A DNA stretch of 64,000 bases, taken from the IMG/VR virus record IMGVR_UViG_3300001688_000696; one strand, given 5' to 3'. Made by a program: the position numbers and the translations under genes. Below, in pieces: positions 5,382-62,311 of this stretch (positions within the stretch are counted from its first letter, which is position 1; each line of letters starts with the position of its first letter). Below the pieces are notes generated by a model that saw nothing but the letters and a program-made list of their open reading frames with translations, was not told the DNA's origin and did no database searches. The DNA is from a virus (taxonomy: Duplodnaviria > Heunggongvirae > Uroviricota > Caudoviricetes).

Positions 5382-5408
5382 CCCGTAATCCACAAAGCAT
5401 TCTCTTTC

Positions 5409-5436
5409 AAAAAAGACCGATTGCTCGGTCTTTTTT
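5409..5436. terminator. Intrinsic terminator after recA
   Basis: aaaaaagaccga-ttgc-tcggtctttttt. Confidence 0.8.
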
Positions 5437-5467
5437 GATTCATGGGGACGCGTCTCGTCAGAGAAAT

Positions 5468-6528: not shown

Positions 6529-7008
6529 ATGGACTGTCAAATCCATTTTACGCGGCTGGACAAAACGATTAAGGTATTGGGCGGGGTCAGGGCGTTGAAG
6601 CACAGAAATAAGCGTTTCAACGTTTTCAAGGAATGGAGTGACCTCAAAATCGACTCTCGATTACAAAAGGTCGTCCCATCTCGCAGCAATCATGGCTTTT
6701 TCACTTTCAACTATTCTGCCCCAAACTTGCTGGGGGATGAAACGCTGTCTTTCGTGACCAACGATAACGGGCGACATTTTTCCTGTACTGTGACCGGGCA
6801 GGATTATAAAACGTATGAACTAATCAAAGTGTGGGTTGTATTCAATCAGTATGGGGATATTCTCTTTGCGGTTCCGGCACCCGAAACGCCGCAGCGTTAC
6901 GAACTGCCGCCGCCAGAAGGGAGAATTACCATCAATATCGGCAGCGCATTGACCGATGCCATCCGAGATTTCCTTGTTCGTTATTCAATGGGAGATTACA
7001 CGTGTTGA
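6529..7008 (+). CDS. Hypothetical protein
   Basis: 159 aa ORF with own promoter motif upstream and terminator downstream. Confidence 0.65.
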   Translation: MDCQIHFTRLDKTIKVLGGVRALKHRNKRFNVFKEWSDLKIDSRLQKVVPSRSNHGFFTFNYSAPNLLGDETLSFVTNDNGRHFSCTVTGQDYKTYELIKVWVVFNQYGDILFAVPAPETPQRYELPPPEGRITINIGSALTDAIRDFLVRYSMGDYTC

Positions 7009-7012
7009 AACG

Positions 7013-7038
7013 AAAAAGGCTGCTTTCGCAGCCCTTTT
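7013..7038. terminator. Bidirectional terminator between convergent genes
   Basis: aaaaaggctgc-tttc-gcagcccttt. Confidence 0.7.
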
Positions 7039-7042
7039 CGTT

Positions 7043-7843
7043 TTAGAACGGTAACAAGTCAATTGGAAGCGGGGTCAGTATTTCAACCTCCCCATTCATC
7101 AGGACAACGGTCATTTCGTACTGTGCCGAAATGGAACCATCCACTGAAACCATTGTCCATGCGTCATTGTCCGGGTCTTTGAGCGTCAATTTGACCACCG
7201 GCGACCGGCTGAGAAATCCGAGTGGTTCAACAGCGATAACCATCCCATCCCGAAAACGAACACGTTTATCACTTCCCAATACGGGCTGTTCGTGCAGCGA
7301 AAAACCAACACCGTGACCGGCGTACTCATCGCTAACCCCAAAGCCATTTTCGCTCAGGTGTGCATTCATGACGTTGGTCATCATGGCGACCGTGTTCCCC
7401 GGCCGAAAACAATCAATCCCCTTCAGCGTAGCTTCATATGTGGTGCGCAGCAAGCGCAGGATTTCTGGGCTGACCTCCCCCACCGGGACAGTCACGGCAG
7501 CATCGGTAATTAGCCACTTGTAGTCAACACCACAGTCAATTTTCAGCACGTCCCCGTTTTGAAGAACGCGCTGGTTGGGGATGCCGTGAATGGCTTCTTC
7601 ATTCACAGACAGGTTGGTAACAGCGGGATACGGAAAATCTTCATCCATGATGTAGTCAAGAAATGCTGGGGATGCCCATTTGTGGTTTTCAATAATTTCC
7701 CTCGCCCGCATTTCTAAGTCCATGAGACACGCACCGGGCTTCGCCATCAAGGTAAGTTCCCTCAGCACCTCGGCATTAATTTTTCCGCTAACGCGCAGCA
7801 ATTCGATGTCTTTCGGCTTCTTTAGTTTTAGCTCGGCAATCAT
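7043..7843 (-). CDS. map: Methionine aminopeptidase type I
   Basis: SVNEEAIHGIP, DVLKIDCGV, ITDAAVT, YAGHGVGFSLHEQP, IAVEP, SAQYEMTV metal-ligand motifs. Confidence 0.92.
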   Translation of the reverse strand: MIAELKLKKPKDIELLRVSGKINAEVLRELTLMAKPGACLMDLEMRAREIIENHKWASPAFLDYIMDEDFPYPAVTNLSVNEEAIHGIPNQRVLQNGDVLKIDCGVDYKWLITDAAVTVPVGEVSPEILRLLRTTYEATLKGIDCFRPGNTVAMMTNVMNAHLSENGFGVSDEYAGHGVGFSLHEQPVLGSDKRVRFRDGMVIAVEPLGFLSRSPVVKLTLKDPDNDAWTMVSVDGSISAQYEMTVVLMNGEVEILTPLPIDLLPF

Positions 7844-7852
7844 GCATTCCCC

Positions 7853-9028
7853 CTAGAAGGTCAGAATGCGAAAAGCCTGTGCATCCGGTTTGCCATGATA
7901 CAGGGCGATATAAGCCTTCTGTGCTGGATTGACCTTCGACACAAGCATGGTTTCCGTCTTTGACTGGCTTCCAAACTCGGTTTTGCTGGTGGCAACGGTC
8001 TGGACGTTGAAGTTGCCAATCATTTGCTGGTATTCACGGTTGTTTTCGTTCAGGGCATACAGCGTAATCAGAGCGCATTCTGTCCCCGCCATCTGGAAGG
8101 CAGGCTCGGTTTTGACCGTGAAGGTCGTCTTTTCAAGCTGTTTGGCGACATAGTGCGGATTGTTGTGGTCGCCGTTGGTCAGCCAGTCCGAAATGGCTTT
8201 TAGGACATCCTGCGGCACGCCCTTCAGCTCCTTGCGGGACTTCAGGATAGAAAGCGCCGACTGAACCTTCGGACTTTTCACTTTCCCGGCTGCTTCCGGT
8301 TCCTCGTCAAATTCGGCGTTTTCATCCACGTAAGGGGCGGCTTTGCTGGCGAACGTACCCGCAGCGTCCGGTTCATCCTCACTGGCTTCATCAATCGAAA
8401 ACAGGTCATCATCGTCATCCGATTCGGATGCCGCTGCAAACGAGTCTGATGTGTGACCGGCAGGCGCTTCGTTTTCTGGATGACCGGTGGGTTCTTCGCC
8501 TTCTTCCGCTTCATCATCGCCATCATCCAGCGCAAAGATGTCCTCGCCCCAATCATCATCTACCGGGTTGAACGTCACCGGGGATGATTCTTTTTCGTCA
8601 TCGCCAGAACCGGACTTCTTCGCATCGGGAGAAATCGCATCAATGATGCTCTCAACACCGAATCCTTTACCCTGTTCATCCTCGTGGAAGTCCAGCACTT
8701 CCATCATCTTCGCCGTATTCAGCGCACGGGTTTCCCAGTCTTCGTTTTTGCCGAAATCGAATGGAACGACATCAACCAGCAGTTTCGTTTTTGCCGTCGG
8801 GCCTTGAATGCGCAGCCCGATGCCGTCACCAATCTCGATAAGAACCTGACTGAAGTCAGCAATGCCATCCCGCCAAACTCGCAGTTTCAAAGCCTTTTTG
8901 ATAACGTCCCAAAACATAAGCGATGTTTCGTTGCTGAAGCGGGTGCGCGGCTTTTTTACTTTTGTCTGCCATTCCAACAGTTCTTGGGGGTTGGTCGGGG
9001 GAATCAAAGTCTCTTGCTCATCCGTCAT
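7853..9028 (-). CDS. Hypothetical protein with long acidic linker
   Basis: ATG 9028 with SD AAGAGG. D/E-rich middle segment flanked by globular-looking domains. Confidence 0.7.
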   Translation of the reverse strand: MTDEQETLIPPTNPQELLEWQTKVKKPRTRFSNETSLMFWDVIKKALKLRVWRDGIADFSQVLIEIGDGIGLRIQGPTAKTKLLVDVVPFDFGKNEDWETRALNTAKMMEVLDFHEDEQGKGFGVESIIDAISPDAKKSGSGDDEKESSPVTFNPVDDDWGEDIFALDDGDDEAEEGEEPTGHPENEAPAGHTSDSFAAASESDDDDDLFSIDEASEDEPDAAGTFASKAAPYVDENAEFDEEPEAAGKVKSPKVQSALSILKSRKELKGVPQDVLKAISDWLTNGDHNNPHYVAKQLEKTTFTVKTEPAFQMAGTECALITLYALNENNREYQQMIGNFNVQTVATSKTEFGSQSKTETMLVSKVNPAQKAYIALYHGKPDAQAFRILTF

Positions 9029-47438: not shown

Positions 47439-47549
47439 AAGTATAAGACCACCGGAAACGGGAACGGGTAAACATCGAAATCAGAAAGGGGAAAAACAAT
47501 TATCGCCAGATTGAGGCAGAAGAAGCGATGAAAATCGCTCACCTAATTG

Positions 47550-47905
47550 GGTTGGATGACCGGGCGTTCGCTCGACCCCGGTAGCGAGGAGAGAGGAAAT
47601 TCCGCACTTCAAGGGCAGGGTGGTGGTTAACGGCCACCTGTGGTAACACAGAAACAGGGCCACAGAAACAAACCGCCGATGGGGTAGGAGTCTACTCACA
47701 GGCAAGGGTGAAAAGGTGGTGTAAGAGACCACCGGCGACCGCAGTGATGCGGCGGCCAGGCATCCTTCACTCGAAGCAAGGCAAATTGGGGCGAGGTGCT
47801 GCCCGCACCGCTTGAGCCTCTGGTAGCCGCAAAGACCTTCATGGCAACATGAAGGCAAGACAGATGAACGTCTAAAACAGAATGCGGATTACGGGTTGTC
47901 CAACC
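47550..47905 (+). ncRNA. rnpB: Bacterial type A RNase P RNA
   Basis: P1 ggttggatgacc/ggttgtccaacc; GAGGAAATTCCGCA...ACAGAATGCGGATTA P4; P8 UAACG loop; P9 GUAA; agggccacagaaac; gggtgaaaaggtggtgtaagagaccacc; GGU in L15; P18 GCAA hairpin. Confidence 0.95.
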
Positions 47906-47934
47906 AAAAAGCGGCAGATTACCTGTCGCTTTTT
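47906..47934 (+). terminator. Terminator of rnpB
   Basis: aaaaagcggcag-attac-ctgtcgcttttt. Confidence 0.8.
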
Positions 47935-48991: not shown

Positions 48992-49661
48992 TCAGCCGGT
49001 TACGGCGGCAATAAGCTCCCGCAGTTTTCGACAATCCTCGCAATAAGCCCGTTCAAAGTAGCTGTGTATGTTGCTGTCTGGTGCGATAGGGAAGTAGTGT
49101 GCCTGAAACGGCAGCATGAAACTATGGCGCTTCAGGTACTTCTTCGGCATCCCCACTTCTCCATTGACCAGCAACGGTTCATAGTACAGCAGCCCCAGAT
49201 GACTGACCGGACGGTAGCCCAGCGTCTCTGCGATAAAGGCATAAATGGATAGCTGTGCGCGATAGATGGGGTTATCAGAGCGGGCGGATTCGTTGACGTT
49301 GGAAACCTTGTAGTCAATGATGGCATACGTCCGGTCTTCCAGTTCGAACAACGCATCCGGCACGCCGGTCACTCGCAGTCCTGTCCTCGGGTCAATTACA
49401 AAGAACCTTTTCGCGCTGGACACCCGGATTTCATTCCGAATGGGCGGCAGCTCATCCATCCACCGCAAAGGCATTTTTTTCGTGAATTGCGGTTTTAGAC
49501 ACCGACTTTGCCGCCAGGTCTAAGCGGCTGAACACGCTTGGAAAGTAGTTGTAGGGGAGTTTCAGTTTGTTTGTTATCCAGAAACAGCGCGGGCAAAAAG
49601 TCGGCATAGAAAGCTCGGCTATCCTTTTTGCCGATAGGCTGAGATGTTGGCTTTTTTCCAT
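48992..49661 (-). pseudogene. Cas4/RecB-like PD-(D/E)XK nuclease split by a +1 frameshift in an A7 run
   Basis: N-part ...FCPRCFW...IHEK (49452-49661) and C-part MPLRW...TGVPDALF...IIDYK...QLSIYA (48992-49474). Removing one A from the T7 at 49474-49480 fuses them in frame. Confidence 0.7.
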
Positions 49662-49791: not shown

Positions 49792-52700
49792 ATGAGCGGT
49801 TATTTTGGTTTCAAGAAAGCCTACATTGATTCGCTCGGAATCGCCGGATACCCGGAAATTTGGCATTGGATGACCAACTACTTGTTTAAAAAGGCAGGGA
49901 TTGGAAAGGCACAGGCTGTTCAATATTACCAAAGCCACAAAACGGATTTTGACGGCGTTCCTACTTGCGCGTTTTGTGGTAGCCCGCTTCAACCTGAAAC
50001 ATTAGCCTGCGGCAATCAGTCTTGCGTGCTTTTCGGGAAGCCGGTCTATCGGCGGCATATCGAAAATTTGCATCCCGCTGATGCCCCGGACGCCGTTACC
50101 ACCAATCATGCGCTTAAGCAGCTTACCTATGTTGATTGGGCGAACATGATTGTCGCTTTCGCCCCGGAGACTTACCCGTGGGAATCAGACTTCATGCTGG
50201 CATATCAGATGATGTGCCGGGATGTGTCCATCCTGATTGAGTTCGCCAAACAAATTCAGGCAAAGCAAAACTCGAATACGCTGAGATATTGGGGGGTGGC
50301 GCTTGCCAAATGCGACCGTGTGCTGGTTTCATTGCCGACTGAGCAACTGGTCACACTGGCTTACTGGCGCAATTTTCAAGCACCTTCACTGGTTGAACGA
50401 ATTTATGCCGGTCGCAATTATTTGGCTGCCTATCTGAACCCTGCCAGTCACGAAAGAGTTCACCGGTATCTGCGCCCGCATTTTCTCGAAGTAACGAATT
50501 ATATCGAGAATTACGGCACAGATATGGTGTACAAGGCGTACCAGTTCAACAAAAAGATAGTATTGCTTTTTGCGGAGATGCTGGGCGTCGTGGAGTTCCA
50601 GGCTTCTAGTGAACTGGCGAATATTCTCAAAAACGAGATTTTGGAAGCCGAAGAAAAAATCCATGCCAGCTTGAAGGGGTTGGGGTATGAGACCGATTCT
50701 CCTTCGGAACGCTACGGCTGGCAGTTCAACCAACAGTATAAGGACAACCCCGGATTAGGCGAGTTCATGGAAAAGAACCGCCTGCTGGACTTCTTTGCCA
50801 AAATCGAGACCACAAAAGAGGGCAACCCATATGTAGAAACCTGTAAATTGGTTCGCTCCTATGGGGTTGATTTTTCGATGCCGTTTGAAACGGTGCTGAG
50901 TAAAGTTTGGGAAGCAAAAGATGAAAATAACGGCATCAGCGACTACTTATTCGGGCACCTGTATTTCCTATATCAGGGCGGTTATTACTCTACACCGAAG
51001 TGTTCCAGTCAGGAAAGCCTGACATCTTATTTGGACGATAACTTTGTTTCACCAGAAAAAATTTTTATTCTTTCCAAAGTTTATGATTGGAATGCACAGA
51101 CTCTCCTGAATTATTCTGAGACGCTAGAAACTCTCAGCAGGTTTATTGAAAAACTGGTCGGGATTACAGTCAAAAAGAAAGACCCTAACCCTTACCCGCC
51201 CTTCCTGACGAATAAACAGGTTTCTACGCTGTTTGAATTACAGCAGAAGGCTTATAGCTTGCTGTGCAAGCTACCGATAACCGACAAAAACATTTCTACC
51301 GAAAACTGGCTGGAACCGAAGTTCGTCCCTGTCGCCCATTTTGCCCTTATCTGGAAAGAGCCTCTCAACCAGAAACAGTTTGCGAAGGCTCTGGAAAATT
51401 TTGGCATCCCGGCAGAGATTGGCGAAAAAATCGGGCAGAACAACCTGTATTCCTTTTTGAAGTACACGAAGGGGCTAATCGAATTATACAAAACCCTTCA
51501 TTGCGATATTGCCCATGAACTGTACCAGACCCCCAGCCAGCAGGTCGCCCGCCGCGCGGTTTTGAGCGACAAAAAATACAGCACTTTCATGATGTTTGTC
51601 CTTGAAGAAAAGGCAAACAAAAAAGTCAACGTGAAAATGCTGGCTTATGCAATGGGGAAAAAGAGCGAAGAAGAAATAGATAAAAACTTTGACGTTCTTC
51701 TGAAAGAGCTGGTCGGTGCGGGGAAAATCCTATACTGTCCGTCCTGCGGTTCACCGGTCAGTTTGACAGATGCCGCCTGTGGCAGTTGCGGTTGCACAGA
51801 AAAATACAAAACCTTCCCGGTTGAAAAGGTCTACGAACCGCCGCAGTCCATTTACACCGTAGCGGGCGGGCTGTCGATTCAGGCCGAGTTCACGAATATC
51901 AGTGGTCTGATGTCGACCTACCTGACCAACAGCGCCCCGGCTGTGGAAATGGACATTGTGGCGCTTCCGAAGCTCCCGATTGTCAAAGCGGGCGAATTCG
52001 GAAAGAAAATCGCCCTTCTTTCCAGTAAGCTGGCAAGCATCTACCTGCCGGGGTATCTGAGCCTTCCGCAGTTTTCAGACATCGATGGACTGGTCTTCGA
52101 ATTCGCCGGTGTCGCTCATCTCGGCGGCGTCCATGAAAAGCACCTGTTGAAAGACCAGAACGGCGTCACGTGGCTGGCAAAGCCCGACAAGCACCTGTTG
52201 GGGGTGCGTGCTTACGTGGAAGCGTTTGCTTCGCAGGTGTTCAAACTGTGCGGAATTTACACCCCGCCAACTTTCGTTATCCAGCACAACGATTACCTAA
52301 CGTCCGTCCAGCCGCTTTTGGATAATGTCAAGCCGCTGTCCCCTGACCCGCAGGAATGGACGAAAGAGCAATGCAAAACTGTCGTTCAAAGCCAGATTGT
52401 GCGCTGGGTGCTGTCCGACCATGATGGGAATGTTACAAATTACCTGGTGTTGAGCGGTAAAGACTGCGTTTTCCCGGTCGATATGGGACAGGCTTACCGC
52501 TATTTCGGGAAAGACGAATTGTCTCTAACCTATCACCCGAACAGCGCCTTTGCTACGCCAGAGCCGTTGTCGAATATTTTCTGGCGGGAAGTTAAGCACG
52601 GCGAGCTATCATTTGAGTGGGACTGGATTTTAGAAACCGTCTCGAAAATCGAAGAAATTGACAACCAGTTCTACGCCGAACAGGTGGCAAATTTTGCGAA

Positions 52701-52908
52701 TATCGCTGTCCAAAGCGATAAAATCGAATGGGTTGGTTCCTTCCGTCAAAAAATTGCTGAAGAAAAGAATATTAACTTGAAAAAAGTCAAAAGGGAAGAA
52801 ATTGCCGCACGGTTCGTAGATATGGCGTTGGAACGCAAGAACAGTGTAAGGGCGGACTATGAAAAGTTCATCCAAAGCATTGTCGGTAATTCTTTTTCAC
52901 TCTCCTAA
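49792..52908 (+). CDS. Large multidomain protein: two double zinc ribbons + helical region + C-terminal HipA/PI3K-like kinase
   Basis: CAFC..CGNQSC and CPSC..CGSCGC. Kinase motifs LGGVHEK, WLAKP, VEAFASQV, SDHDGNVTNY, VDMGQAY. Confidence 0.75.
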   Translation: MSGYFGFKKAYIDSLGIAGYPEIWHWMTNYLFKKAGIGKAQAVQYYQSHKTDFDGVPTCAFCGSPLQPETLACGNQSCVLFGKPVYRRHIENLHPADAPDAVTTNHALKQLTYVDWANMIVAFAPETYPWESDFMLAYQMMCRDVSILIEFAKQIQAKQNSNTLRYWGVALAKCDRVLVSLPTEQLVTLAYWRNFQAPSLVERIYAGRNYLAAYLNPASHERVHRYLRPHFLEVTNYIENYGTDMVYKAYQFNKKIVLLFAEMLGVVEFQASSELANILKNEILEAEEKIHASLKGLGYETDSPSERYGWQFNQQYKDNPGLGEFMEKNRLLDFFAKIETTKEGNPYVETCKLVRSYGVDFSMPFETVLSKVWEAKDENNGISDYLFGHLYFLYQGGYYSTPKCSSQESLTSYLDDNFVSPEKIFILSKVYDWNAQTLLNYSETLETLSRFIEKLVGITVKKKDPNPYPPFLTNKQVSTLFELQQKAYSLLCKLPITDKNISTENWLEPKFVPVAHFALIWKEPLNQKQFAKALENFGIPAEIGEKIGQNNLYSFLKYTKGLIELYKTLHCDIAHELYQTPSQQVARRAVLSDKKYSTFMMFVLEEKANKKVNVKMLAYAMGKKSEEEIDKNFDVLLKELVGAGKILYCPSCGSPVSLTDAACGSCGCTEKYKTFPVEKVYEPPQSIYTVAGGLSIQAEFTNISGLMSTYLTNSAPAVEMDIVALPKLPIVKAGEFGKKIALLSSKLASIYLPGYLSLPQFSDIDGLVFEFAGVAHLGGVHEKHLLKDQNGVTWLAKPDKHLLGVRAYVEAFASQVFKLCGIYTPPTFVIQHNDYLTSVQPLLDNVKPLSPDPQEWTKEQCKTVVQSQIVRWVLSDHDGNVTNYLVLSGKDCVFPVDMGQAYRYFGKDELSLTYHPNSAFATPEPLSNIFWREVKHGELSFEWDWILETVSKIEEIDNQFYAEQVANFANIAVQSDKIEWVGSFRQKIAEEKNINLKKVKREEIAARFVDMALERKNSVRADYEKFIQSIVGNSFSLS

Positions 52909-52922
52909 TAATGAGGTAATCA

Positions 52923-53672
52923 GTGGACGACATTACCAATAAGACTGATAAAACCCCATTGGACTGCCAGATTATATTCAAGCCAGACCTGTATAACTCC
53001 GGTTTGAATATCGTCTTAGAAGTAAACGACTCTCATATCGCTTACAAAAACGGGGAAAATCCTTGCGAGCAATACGCCATTCGAGGCTATTTGGGCGAGT
53101 CCCCGGATGGCATCCAATCCATTTATTCGTGGTTGATTTCGCGGCCAGCGACTTCGCTGGTGCTTATCGTTCCAGATGGCAAGCTGAACTGCCCGGAGAA
53201 TGTTGCTCTGGTCTATTTGCTGGTTGCGGTGCTTTTGAAAAAAATGCGTTTGACGAAAGCGATTGAATACATGTACAACCGTGGGTTCACGCTGTCTAAC
53301 AGCCGCTATCTTGATGTGGTGGATTTCATTCGGGCGAAAATTTCCGAGAATGAAAGGGCTGTTTTGAATATCCCAGCTTATCCAATTGACCAACCCAAAA
53401 AGCCATCTGCTGCATTTGCGTTAGCTTCCAGAGAAATTCCACCGCTTGACCGGATGGAGATGCTGCTGCGGGAATATACGCTGACATCCCTTCTTGAGGT
53501 TGAAGAAAGCAGCACCGATGTCCTGATACAGCAAATCGCTTCGCTGATGGATATTTTGACGGATGCCCAATTGAAAGAAGTTATCCGTCGTATTTACCCG
53601 TTGCAATCGCGGAATGGAGAGTTTGTAGATTCATTGGTTCACCATTATCGGAGTTTTTTTCAAAGGGAGTGA
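52923..53672 (+). CDS. Hypothetical protein, possible DSP-fold pseudophosphatase
   Basis: LVLIVPDGKLNCPENVALVYLL...LTKAIEYMYNR parallels VxVHCxxGxxRS...ayL...eAi..v..R but lacks the catalytic Cys/Arg. Confidence 0.4.
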   Translation: MDDITNKTDKTPLDCQIIFKPDLYNSGLNIVLEVNDSHIAYKNGENPCEQYAIRGYLGESPDGIQSIYSWLISRPATSLVLIVPDGKLNCPENVALVYLLVAVLLKKMRLTKAIEYMYNRGFTLSNSRYLDVVDFIRAKISENERAVLNIPAYPIDQPKKPSAAFALASREIPPLDRMEMLLREYTLTSLLEVEESSTDVLIQQIASLMDILTDAQLKEVIRRIYPLQSRNGEFVDSLVHHYRSFFQRE

Positions 53673-53681
53673 AGTGAGAAA

Positions 53682-55019
53682 ATGGATGATATGCAGGTAT
53701 GGTGCCCGCGCTGTGGTCAACTGGTGGACGCTCTTTCTGTGAAAAATCATAACTGTCCTGCCAAGAGCGAAAGAAAAATCACGGCTGGCGATTGGGTTGC
53801 GTTCTTAGCCCAGCGGTATCCAGAAGAAAACGCCTTGTCGCTTATTAGTTGGCACAAGGTGCTGCTGGAGAAGTACGGTGAGGCTGAGTTGTTCCAGGCT
53901 GCCAAAGATTTCGCCCGCAAAAACGGAGATTTTTCGGCATTTGCCCCGACCTACCCCGTAAAGTTGGAGCGAAAACCGGAGGTCGGCCCGAATCTCGACA
54001 GTCGGGAATATCAAAACCGGGTGAGTGGAATGATGGTTGGTATGGCGGTCGGGGACGCGTTGGGCTACCGGGATGAATTCCTTCATCCGCAGAGTCTTTT
54101 AGAGAAGTATGGTCTACTCGGCGTGTGTGACCCGCAGGGCGTCAACCGAAAGGGCGAATTTTTGTACACAGATGACACCCAAATGGCGGTCGCTCTCGCC
54201 GAAGGCTTGCTGGAAACGAAAGATTATACTAATTATACTGGTGTGGTAAAGAAGTTCGTTGAGTGGCTTCACTCCCCGGATAACAATCGTGCGCCCGGTA
54301 ATGCCTGTATGCGCGGTTGCCAGCAGTTGAACATGGGGCAGGTTTGGTACAAAGCTGGCGATTTAAATTCAAAAGGTGCTGGCAGCGTCATGCGAGTTTT
54401 CCCGGTCGGAGCGCTGTATCGCGACAATCTGAATGCTATCGTTGTGGTCAGCGCTGACCAGGCGGTGATGACCCACGCCCATCCTACGGGCATCTTGGCG
54501 GCGGTTGTCGGGGCGTATGTGGTGTCGCTGGCGCTGAAAGACGTGCCACCGGCAGAGTTGCTGCCGAAAACAATTGGATTTACCGAAAAATTCTTCAATA
54601 ACAAGGAAATGTTGGCTGTCCTGCGCGGCGTTGAACGTGTAATGCAGGAAGGTTTGGATGATTACGCCGCGTCCGATATTTTGGGCAGCGGTTGGGTTGC
54701 TGAGGAAGCGTTAGGAATAGGGCTGCTTTCCTTCCTGCGAAGCCCGGATGATTTCGCAGCCGTTGTCCGGCGCGCAGTGAATTTCCCTGGCAGGGGCGGT
54801 TCGTGTGACCGGGATACGGTCGGAGCGATTGCAGGGGCTATCGCTGGCGCTTATGTAGGGTTGGATGGCATCCTGCCCCGCTGGGAAAGCCGGATTGAAA
54901 ACCGGGGGATGCTGCTCGAACTCGGCCGGAAGCTGGCGAAACACAGCACCGAATATTGCCAGCATGAATTGAAACCAAGCCAGTCGAAGGGCATTGCCCT
55001 GCTGACACGCCCATTTTAG
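53682..55019 (+). CDS. ADP-ribosylglycohydrolase (DraG/ARH family) with N-terminal zinc ribbon
   Basis: GMAVGDALG, YTDDTQMA, GSVMRVFPVG, THAHP, DRDTVGAIAGAIAGAYVG; N-terminal CPRC..HNC. Confidence 0.92.
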   Translation: MDDMQVWCPRCGQLVDALSVKNHNCPAKSERKITAGDWVAFLAQRYPEENALSLISWHKVLLEKYGEAELFQAAKDFARKNGDFSAFAPTYPVKLERKPEVGPNLDSREYQNRVSGMMVGMAVGDALGYRDEFLHPQSLLEKYGLLGVCDPQGVNRKGEFLYTDDTQMAVALAEGLLETKDYTNYTGVVKKFVEWLHSPDNNRAPGNACMRGCQQLNMGQVWYKAGDLNSKGAGSVMRVFPVGALYRDNLNAIVVVSADQAVMTHAHPTGILAAVVGAYVVSLALKDVPPAELLPKTIGFTEKFFNNKEMLAVLRGVERVMQEGLDDYAASDILGSGWVAEEALGIGLLSFLRSPDDFAAVVRRAVNFPGRGGSCDRDTVGAIAGAIAGAYVGLDGILPRWESRIENRGMLLELGRKLAKHSTEYCQHELKPSQSKGIALLTRPF

Positions 55020-55025
55020 AGGAGA

Positions 55026-55748
55026 ATGATGAGCCGTACTTGCAACAAATGTAACAACCAGATGCAAGAAATTAGGGGGTTGTTTGGCATGATGTATTTC
55101 TGCCCGCACTGCGGCAACCTGAATGAAAGCGTGTTTCCGGCGGCAAACCAGATGCCGAGGCCGAGCGTTGGTTCATATTACAGTCCAGCAGATACATTTT
55201 TGCCGCCTTTCAAGCCGCGGCCTTTGGATATGTCCGAAATCACCCCAGAAATCGGGGTAGGTGCCAGCCCGGATACGCTTTCTAATTTAAATGACCTGCG
55301 TGAGGCGGGCTATACCGCCATCATGAATTTGTTGGAAAATCATGAGTACCGGATTGGAGAAGATGAAATTGACTTCATCCGTGAAAATTTTGTGTGGCGC
55401 AACTATGCGACCATCGATTCGATGAATTTCGGCGTTCCTTCCCTGCGTTGGATTGATGCAACAACGCGCGAAGTCGAAAGGTTGGTGGATGCCGGTCATA
55501 AGGTATACATCCACTGCCGGATGGGGAAAGGGCGGTCGCCGTTGATTGTTCTGGCGCATTTGACCGTCAACCGGCACATGAATTTTGGCGAAGCCGTTGC
55601 AGTGCTGCGCGAGGGAAGAGATTATGCTGACCCGAATATCCATCAGGTTCACCAGCTTTTACGCTACGCTGCGCTGAGAGAAAAAGGGGAACCGCTCCCC
55701 CCCGAACCGATAGAAAAATCCATACCTATTCAATTCGATAGTTGGTGA
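55026..55748 (+). CDS. Dual-specificity protein phosphatase with N-terminal zinc ribbon
   Basis: VYIHCRMGKGRS (HCx5R), upstream TID acid loop; CNKC..CPHC. Confidence 0.9.
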   Translation: MMSRTCNKCNNQMQEIRGLFGMMYFCPHCGNLNESVFPAANQMPRPSVGSYYSPADTFLPPFKPRPLDMSEITPEIGVGASPDTLSNLNDLREAGYTAIMNLLENHEYRIGEDEIDFIRENFVWRNYATIDSMNFGVPSLRWIDATTREVERLVDAGHKVYIHCRMGKGRSPLIVLAHLTVNRHMNFGEAVAVLREGRDYADPNIHQVHQLLRYAALREKGEPLPPEPIEKSIPIQFDSW

Positions 55749-55751
55749 AAA

Positions 55752-56381
55752 ATGGCTCTGATTGACAGGTTGAACAAAACGCAAAAAATTATCTTGTTGG
55801 TGCTGGTGGCGCTGTTTGTCGCGGCTGATATTTGGATTTTGAAAAATGTGTTCTTCTACACGCCCGAATTTGTCGCCTCTCCGCCCAAACAGGTCGCCGT
55901 AGGAAAGGTTGTGCGCACTCTGAGCAACGGCGAGAAAATTGCCTACAGCAGCTCGGTCGCCGTACCAATTCCGAAAGGAAAGACCAGTTTCACGGCTTAT
56001 ATCAAGGCGAGTGCGCTTGTGTCCGGTGACAGGACGATGATTAAGGGGCAGACCGACCCGATTTTCAAGGTGCGAGTGGTCAGCAGCGCATATTTGCAAG
56101 AAAAGCATGTAAAAAACGTTTTGGCTGAAACCTATAACGTCTGGTACACCATCGGAGAAGGCGTCCCGATTGAGTTTCAGGTGGATAAAACCGATGACCA
56201 GCTTTATTTGTTGGTCACGGTTGATGATTTGAAGGTAGCGGAGTACCCGGAATATCATATCAATATCGGCGTGGATGACCGGGATAGAACAAGCAGTTTT
56301 TTGATTACGCAGTTTGATTCAACAAACAAAACGTTTGAATGGGTGACAATGTCCGGAAGAATTGATGTTGTTATCCATTAG
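55752..56381 (+). CDS. Membrane-anchored hypothetical protein
   Basis: N-terminal TM and a beta-rich C-terminus; 3 nt after the DSP stop. Confidence 0.7.
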   Translation: MALIDRLNKTQKIILLVLVALFVAADIWILKNVFFYTPEFVASPPKQVAVGKVVRTLSNGEKIAYSSSVAVPIPKGKTSFTAYIKASALVSGDRTMIKGQTDPIFKVRVVSSAYLQEKHVKNVLAETYNVWYTIGEGVPIEFQVDKTDDQLYLLVTVDDLKVAEYPEYHINIGVDDRDRTSSFLITQFDSTNKTFEWVTMSGRIDVVIH

Positions 56382-56428
56382 CAAATTGCTATCATGTAGT
56401 AGCAACGTTTATAGAAAAGGAAAACAGG

Positions 56429-56686
56429 ATGTTGTCAAAAGAAGAAAGAAATCGCAAGTACCAAGAGATTCTTGACCGGTTGAACCTCAAATTAGAGGAC
56501 TTTCCAACCATTGAGTCACTTTCATATGAAGAAAGAAAAGGTCTGATTGCCATTTGCGTTTGCGAATTTACGGGCGGGCGCACGGCGTCCGAAAAGGCGG
56601 CTGCGCATCCCTGTCTTATCCAACGGTTTTGGGGTGAGACAGACAATCTCAGATGGTATGTTTATCGGTTGAAAGGCGAAGCCTAA
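56429..56686 (+). CDS. Hypothetical protein
   Basis: Promoter TGCTATCAT, SD AGGA, terminator after. Confidence 0.6.
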   Translation: MLSKEERNRKYQEILDRLNLKLEDFPTIESLSYEERKGLIAICVCEFTGGRTASEKAAAHPCLIQRFWGETDNLRWYVYRLKGEA

Positions 56687-56791
56687 TGCTGAAGAAAAGC
56701 ACCCGAAAAACCGGGTGCTTTTCTTTTTTTAATTGACGACCGTGCAGGCTTGAAGTATAATTTTTATAAAATAACCATTCCAGGATTGTTT

Positions 56792-57541
56792 ATGTCATTC
56801 TCCCGAAAACTAAACAAAAAGCTCCCCAATCCGACCAGTGTTCCCGCAGATAAAGTCCTTATTTTCGCTTATCATTGGGAAGAAGCGGAGTTTTTTCGCT
56901 TTGCCGACTGTTATGTCATGCGCCAGTGGACGAAAAAACACGGCTGGAAGCTGATGGTCAACTGCAAAAATCGCCTGCCGGATTGGGACGACCTCGCCCA
57001 TGCCCGTTATAGCTTAGTCCCCAATCGGCTTTTTATGGCGGCGGTAGCCCCATCGGTGGAATCATGGGATGCTTTCAAAGCCAACGGCTTCTTCGTCTTT
57101 GAAATTCCCAACGAGGAAGAAATGCTGGCATATCTCGCCCATCATGGGGGATGGAAAAAGCCGGAAACATATCCATATTTGCGGCAGATAAATTGGAAGA
57201 AAATGCCACCGATACAGCCCGCTTCTGTCCCTGATGGCTACGAATTTTTCAGCCTGTTCAAGCCGACCACGCGGTTTTATTCGATAGGGGGCAGGGGGCA
57301 AATTCAGGTAGATTGGGAACCGGATAAGGGCTGGTCGCTGCATATGACCATGCGCCGCCGATACCCCACATGGGAAGAAATGGCTTATGCCCGCACCTGT
57401 CTCATTCCACCGGCTGCCCACATGTCATTGCTGATGCCGCCTGACGACAAATATATCAACGCCAGCCCGTACAATCTTATTTTGACGCAAACGCTGGGGC
57501 TGGACGAAATCGAGCGCAATTTTGAACGGGGAAAGCTATAA
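56792..57541 (+). CDS. Hypothetical protein with phage-type C-terminal R-x-P-T-W-E-E-M domain
   Basis: WSLHMTMRRRYPTWEEMAYAR...PPDDKYIN. Confidence 0.6.
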   Translation: MSFSRKLNKKLPNPTSVPADKVLIFAYHWEEAEFFRFADCYVMRQWTKKHGWKLMVNCKNRLPDWDDLAHARYSLVPNRLFMAAVAPSVESWDAFKANGFFVFEIPNEEEMLAYLAHHGGWKKPETYPYLRQINWKKMPPIQPASVPDGYEFFSLFKPTTRFYSIGGRGQIQVDWEPDKGWSLHMTMRRRYPTWEEMAYARTCLIPPAAHMSLLMPPDDKYINASPYNLILTQTLGLDEIERNFERGKL

Positions 57542-57619: not shown

Positions 57620-57648
57620 TTGACAAACAGCAAACTTTTTGCTATAAT
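57620..57648 (+). promoter_or_regulatory. Consensus sigma-70 promoter upstream of tRNA region
   Basis: TTGACA-N17-TATAAT, perfect. Confidence 0.9.
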
Positions 57649-57971: not shown

Positions 57972-58043
57972 TCCTCTCTAGCTTAATGGCAGAGCGTCCG
58001 GCTGTTAACCGGGAAGGTGCAGGTTCGAGTCCTGCGGGAGGAG
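57972..58043 (+). tRNA. tRNA-Asn(GTT)
   Basis: Cloverleaf; loop CT-GTT-AA; no encoded CCA. Confidence 0.92.
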
Positions 58044-58048
58044 CTGAT

Positions 58049-58120
58049 GCGGTAATAGGTCAACGGTAGACTGCCTGCTTCCCAAGCAGGAGGTTGCGAG
58101 TTCAAGTCTCGCTTACCGCT
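58049..58120 (+). tRNA. tRNA-Gly(CCC)
   Basis: GCGGTAA/TTACCGC; loop TT-CCC-AA; U73. Confidence 0.92.
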
Positions 58121-58126
58121 TCCGAT

Positions 58127-58197
58127 GCGGGCATAGTTCAACGGTAGAACATCGCCTTGCCATGGCGAAAATACGAGTTCGAGTCTCGTTGTCCGCT
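58127..58197 (+). tRNA. tRNA-Gly(GCC)
   Basis: GCGGGCA/TGTCCGC; loop TT-GCC-AT. Confidence 0.92.
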
Positions 58198-58198
58198 C

Positions 58199-58269
58199 TG
58201 CGGAGTAGAGAAGTGGCATCTCGACGGCCTCATAAGCCGTGAACGCAGGTTCGAGTCCTGCCTCCGCTA
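58199..58269 (+). tRNA. tRNA-Met(CAT), initiator-like
   Basis: 1:72 mismatch (T:T), A11-U24; loop CT-CAT-AA. Confidence 0.88.
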
Positions 58270-58275
58270 CCTGAT

Positions 58276-58349
58276 GCACCCGTGGTGTAGTGGTCTAACA
58301 TGCGGCCCTGTCAAGGCTGAGAACGCCAGTTCAAATCTGGTCGGGTGCG
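58276..58349 (+). tRNA. tRNA-Asp(GTC)
   Basis: GCACCCG/CGGGTGC, G73; loop CT-GTC-AA. Confidence 0.92.
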
Positions 58350-58354
58350 CCTAT

Positions 58355-58425
58355 GGGCGTGTAGTTCAATGGGAGAACGACGCTGTCGCATAGCGTAAAT
58401 CTGGGTTCGACCCCCAGCATGTCCA
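58355..58425 (+). tRNA. tRNA-Ala(CGC)
   Basis: G3.U70 pair; loop GT-CGC-AT. Confidence 0.85.
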
Positions 58426-58640
58426 CTCGCCAAAGTCTACCGCCATAGACAATGGCGACAGGTTTATCATCAAAGTCCGGTGGCGGCCGGGCGGAGAAAA
58501 TTTCCCTGACCGGCGTGAAACCCAATGGCGAGGCGTAGCGCCAGTGAAAAGAACCAAAGTCGTGTGGTGTAAGTTCGTAATAGCACACATCCATAGGGTG
58601 ATGAAGTCCGGTAAGCCGTGACCCCGGCGCGATTTTGGTC
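58426..58640 (+). ncRNA. Unidentified structured RNA candidate in tRNA array
   Basis: Two closed domains (ctcgcca/tggcgag; accaaagtcg/cgattttggt) with internal hairpins. Confidence 0.4.
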
Positions 58641-58667
58641 AATTTTTTAACCAGTAGGGCGTGATTT

Positions 58668-58738
58668 GGTCGGGTCTTTCAACGGCAGGAAACCGTTCTG
58701 ATAAAGCGGTAATGAGTGTTCGACTCACTCCCTGACCA
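58668..58738 (+). tRNA. tRNA-Ile(GAT), divergent
   Basis: GGTCGGG/CCTGACC; loop CT-GAT-AA; weak D-stem. Confidence 0.8.
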
Positions 58739-58745
58739 CTACTAT

Positions 58746-58819
58746 GGACTTTTAGCTCAGCCGGTTAGAGCGCCGCCTTGACATGGCGGGGGTCGTGCGT
58801 TCAAGTCGCACAAAGTCCA
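58746..58819 (+). tRNA. tRNA-Val(GAC)
   Basis: GGACTTT/AAAGTCC; loop TT-GAC-AT. Confidence 0.92.
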
Positions 58820-58824
58820 CTGAT

Positions 58825-58897
58825 GGGCGATTAGTTTAGCAGTCAGAACGCCCGGTTCACATCCGGGAGGTCGCAGGTGCAAATCCTGCATTGCCCA
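58825..58897 (+). tRNA. tRNA-Val(CAC)
   Basis: GGGCGAT/ATTGCCC; loop TT-CAC-AT; T-loop TGCAAAT. Confidence 0.88.
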
Positions 58898-58918
58898 CTC
58901 CGTTTGTTTCGTCGGATA

Positions 58919-58985
58919 GCACAGTTCGTCTAAGTGGTAGGACAGACCCAAGGGTCAGATGCAGGTTCGAATCCTGCACTGTGCG
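58919..58985 (+). ncRNA. tRNA-like RNA lacking an anticodon loop (67 nt)
   Basis: Acceptor GCACAGT/ACTGTGC, D-arm and T-arm GCAGG-TTCGAAT-CCTGC intact; anticodon arm is GACCC-AA-GGGTC. Confidence 0.8.
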
Positions 58986-59107
58986 AACGAAGGCGGCAGA
59001 CGAACAACGGGAAGCCGTCACTTCTCGGTTGGTAATCTGGTAGATAGGCGGAAGGCGGAGGCTTGACGGGGCTGATGCTGACAAATATCTACCGGGTTAT
59101 CATGAAT

Positions 59108-59181
59108 GGGCGGTTAGCTCAGGTGGTTAGAGCGCTGTGCTGATAACGCAGAGGTCGAAGGTTCGAATCCTTCACCGCCCA
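59108..59181 (+). tRNA. tRNA-Ile(GAT)
   Basis: Canonical GGGCGGT/ACCGCCC; loop CT-GAT-AA. Confidence 0.95.
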
Positions 59182-59191
59182 CCTTTGAGAT

Positions 59192-59264
59192 GGGTACATG
59201 GCGTTAATTGGGAACGCACCGCCTTTGCACGGCGGAGTTGTGGGTTCGAGTCCCACTGTATCCA
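59192..59264 (+). tRNA. tRNA-Ala(TGC)
   Basis: G3.U70; loop TT-TGC-AC. Confidence 0.92.
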
Positions 59265-59317
59265 CTATGGACGGTTCTAAAGAATTGTTTTGACTGGTCG
59301 GGTGCTGGTAAAAATTT

Positions 59318-59392
59318 GGGTGCTTAGCTCAGTTGGTCAGAGCGCCTCGTTTACACCGAGGAGGTCGGGGGGTTCGAGACCCTCAGCGCCCA
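59318..59392 (+). tRNA. tRNA-Val(TAC)
   Basis: GGGTGCT/AGCGCCC; loop TT-TAC-AC. Confidence 0.92.
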
Positions 59393-59396
59393 CTCG

Positions 59397-59583
59397 TCCC
59401 TGGCTCATCTCCTTGGCGCGCCGCAAAAAGTTATAAGGAGATATTGCCGCAACAATACACGGCGGATTCGCGATAATGCCGTTGAGGTAGTACGTGGTGA
59501 CACGGAATTGCCAGCAAAACTGGATGGTAGGAAACCAGGGATGAGCTGTGTCGGCGGGATTTCGATAACTATCCCGCCGACAC
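59397..59583 (+). ncRNA. Unidentified multibranch RNA candidate in tRNA array
   Basis: tccctgg/ccaggga closes five hairpins and is followed by a 13-bp hairpin. Confidence 0.4.
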
Positions 59584-59971
59584 GACAATAATCGAAATCG
59601 GTTTTTGAAGGCGGTAATGCGATAAAAAAGAGTTGGAATCAGGTTGGCGAACCGGACTTTTATCGCAATCAGCAAAATTTCCAAATCCTGCTGTCTTTTG
59701 ACCGGCCTTTGCTGACGGGCGCAAGTTTTTGGAACTGCTGGTACAGGAAAGCGCAAACGTAAGTCGCAATCTAATTTTCTTCTTGAACGAAGCCAAATTT
59801 GAGCCGTTCAAACAGGAACAGGTGTCCCTGCGGCAGTTGGTAGCCAACCTATTGGCGGTGAATACTGGTTGGTGAATACGGATGAAAATGGTTTTGCGAG
59901 CTGGTATTGCAAATATTCGCTTTCGCCAGCGGAATTTCCAGAAAAATATTTACTGTCTGAATAACAATTGC

Positions 59972-60042
59972 GCGGGCGTGATGTAACGGTAGCATGACTG
60001 CCCTCCAAGCAGCTCGTGTCGGTTCAAATCCGGCCGTCCGCT
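59972..60042 (+). tRNA. tRNA-Gly(TCC)
   Basis: GCGGGCG/CGTCCGC; loop CC-TCC-AA. Confidence 0.88.
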
Positions 60043-60067
60043 TATTTGGGAACAAACTAAAATCTGA

Positions 60068-60138
60068 AGGGGCGTAGTTTAATGGCAAAATGGCCGTCTC
60101 CAAAATGGCTGTTGGGAGTTCGATTCTCTCCGCCCCTG
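60068..60138 (+). tRNA. tRNA-Trp(CCA)
   Basis: AGGGGCG/CGCCCCT, G73; loop CT-CCA-AA. Confidence 0.92.
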
Positions 60139-60143
60139 TTGAT

Positions 60144-60215
60144 GGGCGCGTAGTTTAATCGGGAAAACGCATCAATGGCATTGATGTGACGCTGGTTCGA
60201 TTCCAGTCGCGTCCA
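60144..60215 (+). tRNA. tRNA-Ala(GGC)
   Basis: G3.U70; loop AT-GGC-AT with the A32-U38 typical of Ala(GGC). Confidence 0.92.
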
Positions 60216-60272
60216 CTTTCCTGTTTGTTTGCTAACCATGTGGAAATGGCAGCGGAGCGGCAGACAGAAATC

Positions 60273-60301: not shown

Positions 60302-60882
60302 GATTTTACCCCGATGTTTTATCGAAAAAACTGAACAGAAAACTGTTTTTAGGAAACGAGGGATGCTGTTTCTGCCATTAGGCTGTTGATTTTTTTTCGA
60401 TTCCTACAGCCATTAAATTGGTCTAACAATTCCTTTGTTCTTTTTGCATGCATTGCCAGCGCCTTTTTTTTTGCTCTGGCGTAAGTTCCCGCCCAGTTTC
60501 ATATCTTTTAGGGCAGTGACAATTCTCGCCCAATTATGCCAAAGGGCGGTGCCATCGAGACTGTTTAGACGATTGGGAACACTAAAGTTTTCTATTGTTG
60601 CCAATCATTCAACGGCTTCTCCCCCAGAGGAATAAGATAATCGACCTGTTGCTCGATTAGTACGCCTAGCGGTATTTTTGCCAACAAAACGCCATTTTCG
60701 TCCTTTTGAAGAGGGCGAAAATGGAATGCAAACCGATTTACCAACTGGCAAAAAATACAAGCCGAAGCAACGGAGCAAGTGGTAGTTATGCCTTGCTGCC
60801 AGCAATCAAGCCAAAGGTTGTAGGCGGCGTCAAAATCGACGTCAGGACGCAACTTGTTTTGAATGTCATCATCCGCCGAAGG

Positions 60883-61278
60883 ATGAAAACGATTCAATCT
60901 GTGCTGAACTTAAATTTTCGTTCTCGGAAAGCCTTGCTGGAAAACGGCTGGAAGGAATACCTTCAATTTGATAACGCCGGATACGTTTACGAAAAGGATG
61001 GGGTGATTTTTAGGGTTAAGAAGCAGACCCCAGAGTTTGCGGTTAGTGACCGGCTGGTTGCCAGACTGCAAATTCGTTTATCACAGCATGAGTTGGAATC
61101 GATTGGCGATTCGTCACTAGTGCAGACCATCCCGACCGGCGAATCATTTTTAAACCTTACACTGACAGATGGAGAAGCCTGCCCGTGGCAGAATGGCAAC
61201 CCGCTTGTTCATCAGGAATTGTCCCTCAATAATCTCCAGCAATGGCTGGATAACTACCAACCGGAGCTGGTTTCCTAA
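60883..61278 (+). CDS. Hypothetical protein
   Basis: ATG 60883 with SD GAAGG; frame open from 60706. Confidence 0.55.
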   Translation: MKTIQSVLNLNFRSRKALLENGWKEYLQFDNAGYVYEKDGVIFRVKKQTPEFAVSDRLVARLQIRLSQHELESIGDSSLVQTIPTGESFLNLTLTDGEACPWQNGNPLVHQELSLNNLQQWLDNYQPELVS

Positions 61279-61402
61279 GCTGTTTCGCGTCCAAAACACA
61301 AATGCCGCCAGCTATATCTATATTTTCGTCATCCATGGTGGAGGTAGCGAAAAATGGAATGTTCCGGTAAAACACAAACTTGCAAAAATATTCAGGAAGG
61401 AC

Positions 61403-62311
61403 ATGGCGGCACTGTGGTGGGGGGTGCCAGCAAAACAAAAAATTTTTGAGGGCGAAGAAGCGCACCAGGTGCTTTGCGACTATTTTCAATTTGCACTGCC
61501 CAATCCCTGTGCGGCGGTTATTGAATGGTGCAACTTCGGATACAAAAGGATAAACGGCATCATTCGCACTCGTGGCGATGCTTCCGTTATTCTTGAATCA
61601 ACGATTGGCATGTCGAGTTACAGCCAATCTCAGCGGTTGGAGCGCTATGAAGAATTCAACCTGGAATGGTGGGAAAATTCTGTTTATGAACACATCGAAG
61701 AATTGGATGCCGTCCTGTCCAGCGTTCAACTGCCCGTTCCCGTCCGTGCTTATCGCGGTGTCTCGGTTTATGATTCTGCCCGCTGGATTAATGCGAAGCC
61801 GGGGGATATACAGGAAATAGACACCTTTTCTTCCCTTTCTTTGGACGAAAAGATTGCCGACCACTTTGCCACGCTCCCCGATTCAGATAATAACTACGGA
61901 AAACCGGTTGATGGCGGTGTTTTGCTGGAGATTGAACTTCCGGCAGGAACGCCCGGCATTTATATTCCGGGATTGGCTTCGTGGAATGACAACCGAATTA
62001 ATAGAAATGTCAGAGAAAAAGAACTGCTGATTCCTAGAAATGTCATTTTCGAGGTTGTGTCCAGAGAACGAGTCTCGTCTGAACGCGCCCCATCTGGCGA
62101 GCTGGTCAAAGTCAAGGTGCGCCTGACCGGGTTTTCTCAAAACAAGGAAGTGCCTCGCAGAAGTACGGATTTGTTCAAAGAACAAGCTGAAAAGCGCATT
62201 CAAGAGCTGGTGAATGATAACAGTGTGCAGGCGGTTTTGGGGATTGATGCCCCGGATACGCTGCGAGCTACTATTGAAAAAATGATGGAAAAGGTGGAAG
62301 GACGGGTTTAA
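61403..62311 (+). CDS. VIP2/Alt-like (R-S-E clade) ADP-ribosyltransferase (start uncertain; frame open from 61169)
   Basis: GYKRINGIIR, RAYRGV, TFSSLSL, LLEIELPAGTPGIYI, EKELLIPRN (ExE). Confidence 0.85.
   Translation: MAALWWGVPAKQKIFEGEEAHQVLCDYFQFALPNPCAAVIEWCNFGYKRINGIIRTRGDASVILESTIGMSSYSQSQRLERYEEFNLEWWENSVYEHIEELDAVLSSVQLPVPVRAYRGVSVYDSARWINAKPGDIQEIDTFSSLSLDEKIADHFATLPDSDNNYGKPVDGGVLLEIELPAGTPGIYIPGLASWNDNRINRNVREKELLIPRNVIFEVVSRERVSSERAPSGELVKVKVRLTGFSQNKEVPRRSTDLFKEQAEKRIQELVNDNSVQAVLGIDAPDTLRATIEKMMEKVEGRV

Follow-up and report, generated by a model that had tools for sequence, protein, structure and literature searches.

A kinase gene linked to an ADP-ribosylhydrolase gene, and in part to a dual-specificity phosphatase gene, on a large mobile element

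The stretch analysed here (the window) comprises 64,000 nucleotides (nt) of the Caudoviricetes record IMGVR_UViG_3300001688_000696 and holds a compact gene cluster whose first product, P0001, ends in an atypical kinase domain and which further encodes an ADP-ribosylhydrolase (ARH, P0003) and a dual-specificity phosphatase (DSP, P0004). In the sequences that we compared, kinase and ARH appear as a conserved core in three lineages, with the DSP present in two of the three. We tentatively read the cluster as a set of modifying enzymes, expressed from one transcript, with which a giant mobile element takes over its host or counters defences, and give this reading just short of an even chance. The window is part of a large mobile element: it encodes a ribonucleotide reductase, RecA, DnaB, SbcCD, ParA, several DNA methylases and a sigma factor, together with a Replic_Relax protein, a coupling-ATPase-like protein and 15 tRNA genes (57972-60216). 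A blastn search of the operon DNA against 50,697 phage records gave no match.

An earlier note on this DNA, drawn from the letters and their translations, had described an operon of five genes, which holds for the genes and their tight spacing and not for the extent of the unit. All five open reading frames (ORFs), P0001 to P0005, are found on the plus strand at the positions given there (Table 1), separated by 14, 9, 6 and 3 nt, and Shine-Dalgarno-like motifs accompany four of them, the first gene (P0001) being the exception. A sixth ORF, P0160, lies 47 nt past the fifth gene, and its 3' end adjoins the sole strong terminator of the region; after the terminator, a promoter-like TTGACG-17-TATAAT sequence (56733-56761) stands before a DUF7694 gene (56750-57541). 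Because the sixth ORF is followed first by the strong terminator and then by the near-consensus promoter, a single six-gene transcription unit spanning 49792-56726 is the most likely arrangement.

The C terminus of P0001 is, as judged from its predicted structure, a HipA/PI3-PI4-kinase-like kinase domain with a complete catalytic set. Its AlphaFold2 (AF2) model (pLDDT 89, pTM 0.82) shows a helical C-lobe, and Foldseek and VIA matches to PI4KIIa, CtkA, LepB, HipT and HipA indicate a bilobal protein-kinase-like fold, PI4KIIa and CtkA being the nearest solved structures, ahead of HipA. The key residues comprise a G-rich loop LGGVHEK (777-783), the Lys/Glu pair K797 and E810, Q840, the catalytic loop H877-D878-x4-N883 and the metal-binding D897 (VDMGQ). 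D878 and D897 are invariant across 45 family members, conservation reaches at least 90% at K797, Q840, W872, H877, N883 and Q900, and the family profile gDhDxxxxN...iDxG aligns to GDRHxxN...IDFG of Vps34 through D878, N883 and D897. P0001 scores 18.2-21 bits against HipA_C (PF07804), below the Pfam cut-off of 30.5, and the sub-threshold Pfam matches among the 45 members fall to HipA_C (18/45), PI3_PI4_kinase (three) and LepB_N (two). We take the domain to be real despite these scores because of its fold, its conserved residues and its large family, so that the kinase motifs picked out in the earlier note are upheld structurally.

Ahead of the kinase domain, P0001 is laid out as a first Zn ribbon (C59-C78), an N-domain (~120-238), a helical region and a second Zn ribbon (C649-C668), an arrangement shared at full length with P0007 (43% identical), P0010 and P0011. 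An iterated search recovered the N-terminal module of ~110 residues (~120-238) from roughly half of the family's 152 best representatives; an Atlas search with the N-terminal 690 residues returned nothing. P0001 also gave a weak TerY_C-like Zn-ribbon match (E 0.012), and neither vWA nor PP2C, the partners in the TerY-P triad, is present.

P0003 is by sequence an intact ARH, in agreement with the earlier note. It matches PF03747 (ADP_ribosyl_GH) with 216 bits against a threshold of 26.2 (9e-64), and the acidic metal-site motifs GDALG (124), TDDT (163) and CDRDT (375) are present and invariant in the three orthologues. Among PDB entries it matches MJ1187 (3e-21), ARH1 (7e-17) and DraG (2e-16), while its NCBIfam scores for DraG (TIGR02662, 2.6e-28, 99 bits against a cut-off of 337) and Tri1 (NF041672, 1.8e-22, 80 bits against 490) are far below the equivalog cut-offs; we class it as a relative of the Arg-specific DraG, Tri1 and ARH1, and not as a DraG or Tri1 equivalog. 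An N-terminal extension of ~110 residues carries a CxxC...HxC cluster (8-25), and orthologues occur in two related lineages, with 57% identity in L002 and 45% in L012, the latter over a match that includes the extension. Around the closest cellular ARHs (L098 ~6535-7455, L101 ~4600-5532 and L103 ~7493-8428), the ARH gene forms an overlapping pair with a YjbR-family gene, and in two of these three loci a CtpB-like S41 peptidase gene lies divergently upstream. These nearest cellular ARHs were also examined for phosphatase, kinase or ADP-ribosyltransferase (ART) neighbours, and the YjbR pairing was found instead in all three.

The window encodes an ART outside the operon, with R196 in AYRGV (at 194), FSSLS at 220 (SSLS 221-224) and E283-K-E285. 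The R, S-x-S and E-x-E motifs are the signature of Arg-directed ADP-ribosyltransferases, and for this reason such an enzyme would suit an ARH1/DraG-like eraser; we regard it as a candidate writer of the marks that P0003 would remove. This constellation resembles DraT/DraG and Tre1/Tri1 in that an ARH related to DraG and Tri1 shares a replicon with an R-S-ExE ART, whereas it departs from them in its equivalog scores, in an ART that is not adjacent and in the extra N-terminal Zn-ribbon/helical extension of the ARH. The 5' end of the ART gene overlaps an ORF at 60706-61278, and its true start may be internal. A jackhmmer lead to fusions of the window ART with the kinase (P0118 and P0123) was discarded, since the match covers only a repeated 45-residue segment.

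P0004 is by sequence an intact VHR-like DSP, and the HCx5R phosphatase of the earlier note is borne out. The protein matches DSPc (PF00782) with 57.3 bits against a threshold of 33.5, and Tc-R-P with 32 bits; its Zn ribbon is formed by C6, C9, C26 and C29. The active site H163-C164-x5-R170-S171 (HCRMGKGRS, 163-171) and the general acid Asp131 align with those of VHR/DUSP3 (1.4e-9). An orthologue, P0163, was found in L010-L013 (40% identity), and a search of IMG/VR with this pair of DSPs yielded no relatives.

The linkage of these genes recurs outside the window. In the closest relative (L002/L003 from ENA and L094/L095 from JGI), a gene for a 1044-amino-acid (aa) kinase protein (43% identity) is followed by the ARH gene (57%) and then by an 85-aa homologue of P0160, directly behind the ARH in both L002 and L094 (32% identity, E 5e-10); a tRNA array starting with tRNA-Asn comes after the small ORF, as in the window. 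The gene order putative RNase P RNA, kinase, ARH, small ORF and tRNA array is thus common to both, and no DSP was found within the sequenced contig of this relative. In a third lineage (L010-L013, Logan assemblies), an ARH (516 aa, 45%), a kinase-domain-only protein (352 aa, 28%) and a DSP with a double Zn ribbon (364 aa, 40%) are encoded by genes that overlap by 1-4 nt and are apparently translationally coupled. An ARH or DSP lay within 10 kb in none of 80 viral kinase loci from IMG/VR, and the kinase or this DSP was near other ARHs (30-40% identical) in none of 78 metagenomic loci, so that the linkage is specific. The five closest kinases, searched against genome contigs, had no relatives there. 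The evidence for a module is good and not overwhelming, because the sample amounts to three metagenomic lineages. The earlier note had proposed a module of five genes, to be given up if no relative kept the gene order; the core withstands this check, since kinase and ARH are neighbours in the 43-57% identical relative, and ARH, kinase and DSP stay together, in a changed order, in the third, independent and diverged lineage. P0002 and the membrane protein P0005 were seen in no lineage but that of this element.

Several features of the related loci were recorded alongside. The putative RNase P RNA region of the window (47484-47932) is matched by L002:3033-3386 and L094:5530-5883, ~0.9 kb 5' of the kinase gene. 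The third lineage has a tmRNA gene on the minus strand (L010:3151-3552 and L011:2811-3212) whose tag, ANKRIAQPVFAGVKSYFALPLAA, is unusually long; this gene lies 25 nt beyond one for a 137-aa protein that follows ARH, kinase and DSP; a Csc2 (type I-D Cas7) fragment was seen at L010 8509-8955. A divergent PD-(D/E)XK gene stands upstream of a third kinase orthologue in L004. In L005, several CxxC pairs that make up a double Zn ribbon open the gene (6634-6930) after the kinase orthologue P0011, which recalls the N-termini of the window ARH, the window DSP and P0163; the contig ends before the catalytic part of this gene.

The kinase belongs to a large family whose other contexts bear on its role. 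In an HMMER search run exhaustively over 1.84 billion cluster representatives (clusters at 50% identity), 841 relatives reached E <= 1e-3 and 431 reached E <= 1e-10, and no Pfam, PHROG or NCBIfam model captures the family. One 2799-aa protein (P0090) unites portal, MuF, ART-PolyVal and family kinase; the gene for another member, P0008, lies behind a Mu-type portal gene, and in 80 IMG/VR loci the domain sits within ORFs of 944-2445 aa. An actinomycete member, P0016, adjoins Replic_Relax and ParB-like genes, a setting like that of integrative and conjugative element (ICE) loci. In BFVD the top viral structural match is gp16 of Mycobacterium phage Onyinye, a 1340-aa 'ADP-ribosyltransferase' (TM 0.66, E 1e-13), and the structural neighbours include two-domain kinase+Nudix and kinase+ART proteins. 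A tblastn search of cultured phages found 12 mycobacteriophage records with a kinase-family match, nine of them inside proteins named 'minor capsid and ADP-ribosyltransferase fusion' or 'ADP-ribosyltransferase' and three in hypothetical proteins. Onyinye, Leopard, Aikoy, McProf and prophiFSIL01-1 (e.g. MN813687.1 6188-6946) carry the kinase-family domain unannotated (tblastn E 1e-8 to 1e-14).

A distinctive kinase clade was described in phage and conjugative-element polyvalent proteins by Iyer, Burroughs, Anand, de Souza and Aravind in 2017 (PMC5512222); it has lost the C-terminal subdomain, carries an insert between the catalytic His and Asp and has a conserved Gln in the last N-lobe strand (PMC5512222). 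The window kinase appears to be of the same or a very close kinase-domain family as the polyvalent-protein kinases (e.g. the Onyinye and McProf MuF/ART fusions), Q840 corresponding to the conserved Gln. Its modelled C-lobe is helical, which does not clearly agree with loss of the subdomain, and H877 and D878 are adjacent; identity with the exact clade is unproven. The polyvalent character, in which the domain occurs with MuF, portal or ART domains, is found in relatives and not in P0001 itself: here the kinase follows a private 690-residue Zn-ribbon/helical region outside any delivery protein, and genetic linkage to genes for an ADP-ribose eraser and for a phosphatase takes the place of an ART fusion. 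From the model, the domain looks like an active, atypical kinase of Ser/Thr type, whose family occurs elsewhere in proteins delivered by virions or by conjugation. A role in conflict or takeover on a mobile element, akin to the counter-defence suggested in the earlier note, fits these portal, MuF and ART polyvalent proteins and ICE-like loci.

The sequences show that the genes are present, intact and linked, and what folds they encode; the substrates, the direction of action and the interactions we infer as follows. The kinase would phosphorylate host proteins on entry or during residence and so turn them to other uses or disable them, in the manner of the T7 kinase. The ARH would strip ADP-ribose from proteins, and the marks that it removes could come from ARTs of the host or of competitors (counter-defence) or from the element's own R-S-ExE ART (timing or self-protection). 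The phosphatase may limit or reverse phosphorylation, or trim phosphate off ADP-ribose-derived products. Targeting would probably fall to the Zn ribbons together with the long N-terminal part of P0001, and P0002 and the membrane-anchored P0005 may be lineage-specific accessories. There are precedents for the parts: the T7 protein kinase is a broad anti-defence enzyme (PMC13645617), phages use eraser enzymes such as AdfN (PMC11825919), and both kinases and ARTs occur in polyvalent proteins (PMC5512222). The T7 kinase gp0.7 is likewise encoded by a mobile element, with host proteins as its proposed targets (PMC13645617), a functional precedent of a different kinase family with no homology shown, and T7 has no linked ARH or phosphatase.

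A number of observations weigh against a host-takeover or counter-defence toolkit. The kinase is unfused here to any delivery module. Its most conserved partner is the ARH and not the phosphatase, which a simple writer/eraser logic does not explain. The ART is encoded 4.8 kb past the operon, behind the tRNA array and in a separate transcription unit, and the sequenced portion of the closest relative (L094) yielded no ART homologue. The linkage was found in only three lineages, all metagenomic, of which two are perhaps fairly close kin, and PADLOC models gave no match at a meaningful level to the operon proteins. A complex prediction for the kinase domain and the ARH scored 0.00; run without controls, it counts neither for nor against binding.

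The same writers and erasers could instead be directed at the element's own cell as an addiction or exclusion system, with a growth-arresting HipA-like kinase toxin checked by the co-transcribed phosphatase and the ART checked by the ARH after the manner of DraT/DraG or Tre1/Tri1, thereby stabilising the giant element in its host. In favour of this, kinases with the HipA type of structure act as toxins, DraG and Tri1 are relatives of the ARH, and the element has partition and conjugation-like genes and encodes writer and eraser together. HipA and HipT toxin kinases differ from P0001, however, whose Pfam match is sub-threshold, and no Pfam match to the HipA N-terminal domains or to a HipB/HipS-type antitoxin partner was obtained in P0001 or its neighbours. 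Moreover, the closest relative keeps kinase and ARH with no DSP found in its sequenced contig, the distant position of the ART behind the tRNA array and its absence from what is seen of the relative do not suit an antidote pair, and the usual contexts of the family, being delivered polyvalent proteins, point to outward-directed effectors. We consider such a toxin/antidote system unlikely.

The pairing of ARH and phosphatase itself admits another explanation. Burroughs, Iyer and Aravind in 2022 described host 'ARG-centric' systems, proposed to counter viral ADP-ribosylation (PMC9503650). By analogy, ARH and Cys phosphatase might both process one ADP-ribose (ADPr)-derived substrate, possibly structured RNAs (tRNAs, RNase P RNA, tmRNA) or released ADPr derivatives, and the kinase, instead of modifying host proteins, would regulate the two enzymes or take part in their sugar-phosphate chemistry. 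In more than 55% of ARG-centric systems, the ARG is coupled to a phosphatase of the rhodanese-phosphatase superfamily, often together with restriction endonuclease (REase)-fold nucleases (PMC9503650). The window is similar in its tight coupling of a hydrolase to a Cys-based phosphatase (6-nt gap between ARH and DSP; a shared operon in L012, where the kinase gene separates the two), in the REase-fold gene nearby (the PD-(D/E)XK gene upstream), in fast-varying accessory genes and in a setting of genetic conflict. The adjacency of ARH and DSP accordingly has a precedent in which the phosphatase is the partner of the hydrolase and not the opponent of a kinase. The cluster also lies between a putative RNase P RNA and a tRNA array in the window and its 43% relative, and beside a tmRNA in the third lineage; ART toxins acting on tRNA, tmRNA and RNase P RNA have been described (PMC12340436, PMC13617354), and kinase+Nudix and kinase+ART proteins are among the structural neighbours noted above. 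On the other hand, ARG-centric systems are host-encoded and by definition have no coupled ART, whereas here a mobile element carries an ART 4.8 kb off; they usually include Nudix- or WYL-type repressors and chaperones, whereas no match to Nudix, WYL, vWA or SseB, and no ARPP or chaperone, was detected in the operon (ARPP and TY-chaperones being without models); and a kinase such as the one added here is not reported in PMC9503650. The kinase fold is nearest to protein and lipid kinases, the ARH is most like Arg-specific protein hydrolases, and the closest cellular ARHs are paired with YjbR and not with phosphatases. Adjacency to RNA genes is itself weak evidence, as tRNA arrays are many in such elements. 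Taken together, processing of ADP-ribose adducts seems to us rather unlikely.

A related and more speculative idea is that the kinase and the ARH, with the Cys phosphatase where present, work one after another on a single class of ADP-ribosylated target. Translation RNAs that the element itself encodes (tRNA arrays, RNase P RNA, tmRNA), or else translation factors, might for example be shielded in this way from ART toxins directed at RNA or protein, with phosphorylation gating or completing removal of the adduct. This strikes us as very doubtful; if true, it would be a new phospho-dependent de-ADP-ribosylation repair pathway on giant mobile elements. The earlier note had also raised RNA-end healing for the neighbouring tRNAs. 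The kinase would then act on RNA 5'-OH ends and the phosphatase would take off 2',3' or 3' phosphates. The neighbouring tRNA, RNase P RNA and tmRNA genes are all that speaks for it. The kinase has a PI3/4K/HipA-like and not a P-loop fold, and known RNA 5'-kinases are P-loop enzymes; the operon offers no RNA ligase, 2H, HD or HAD end-healing partner, and the DSP is closest to the protein phosphatase VHR. We hold this explanation to be highly improbable, and leave the remainder to chance or to something not yet imagined.

The other two genes among the five first described are orphans. P0002 had been taken for a DSP-like protein without catalytic residues, which we could not confirm. It has no family match in Pfam, PHROG, PADLOC or NCBIfam, and phmmer against PDB and BLASTP against P0004 were non-significant; hhalign against the pair of DSPs gave a probability of 0.15%, yet in the same register as the DSP-like register seen by eye. 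Its single-sequence AF2 model (pLDDT 56) is too poor for use, so that its Foldseek matches are meaningless, and language-model similarity to DSP clusters in the Atlas is 0.87-0.88, under the 0.9 level and with few shared features. 'Pseudophosphatase' is a guess, the fold being unconfirmed. The single match to P0002 among 5.8 billion proteins is a 99% identical copy on a 367-kb contig, presumably the same element. P0005 has one transmembrane helix followed by what appears by eye to be a beta-rich remainder; its Atlas model is poor, and neither a family match nor a homologue in the related loci was found.

Near the cluster, the Cas4-like nuclease gene is accompanied by a 68-aa ORF (49452-49661, minus strand), both divergent from the kinase gene and both in the same place in L004 (42% and 54% identity). 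On the plus strand, positions 57620-57648 form a perfect TTGACA-17-TATAAT promoter whose -10 element is extended by TG, ~320 nt 5' of the first tRNA gene (57972).

Table 1. Coordinates of the genes and other features of the cluster and its surroundings in the window
Feature	Coordinates	Strand	Remarks
P0001, kinase protein, 1038 aa	49792..52908	+	two Zn ribbons and C-terminal predicted atypical kinase; full-length homologues P0007, P0010, P0011
Kinase domain, residues ~765-1038	52084..52905	+	AF2 model, Foldseek, family profile
P0002, orphan, 249 aa, GTG start	52923..53672	+	no family match
P0003, predicted ADP-ribosylhydrolase, 445 aa	53682..55019	+	PF03747; catalytic domain 111-428
P0004, predicted dual-specificity phosphatase, 240 aa	55026..55748	+	DSPc; N-terminal Zn ribbon
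P0005, orphan membrane-anchored protein, 209 aa	55752..56381	+	N-terminal transmembrane helix 13-31
P0160, conserved small protein, 85 aa, last gene of the unit	56429..56686	+	homologue after ARH in L002 and L094
Intrinsic terminator, 15-bp stem, 7 GC pairs, T-run	56691..56726	+	closes the unit
PD-(D/E)XK / Cas4-like nuclease gene, divergent	48992..49474	-	position 5' of the kinase gene kept in L004
ADP-ribosyltransferase, R-S-ExE type, outside the operon	61169..62311	+	ADPrib_exo_Tox 6e-8; phrog_3895

The earlier note had called the module undescribed. Its parts are of known kinds, namely polyvalent kinases (PMC5512222) and the coupling of ARG to phosphatase (PMC9503650), whereas we did not find the linkage of kinase and ARH, with or without DSP, or the architecture of P0001 described in the literature. 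Kinases, ARTs and erasers encoded by phages and plasmids are coming to be seen as general means of taking over the host and countering defences. The locus offers a compact case, open to testing, of a kinase passed on together with an ADP-ribose eraser and a phosphatase, and so links two modification systems that are mostly investigated separately. It is notable in itself that the kinase family spans 841 clusters with no curated model. In the mycobacteriophage 'minor capsid/ADP-ribosyltransferase' fusions, the unannotated region would be a kinase domain, which makes the prediction directly testable in cultured phages.

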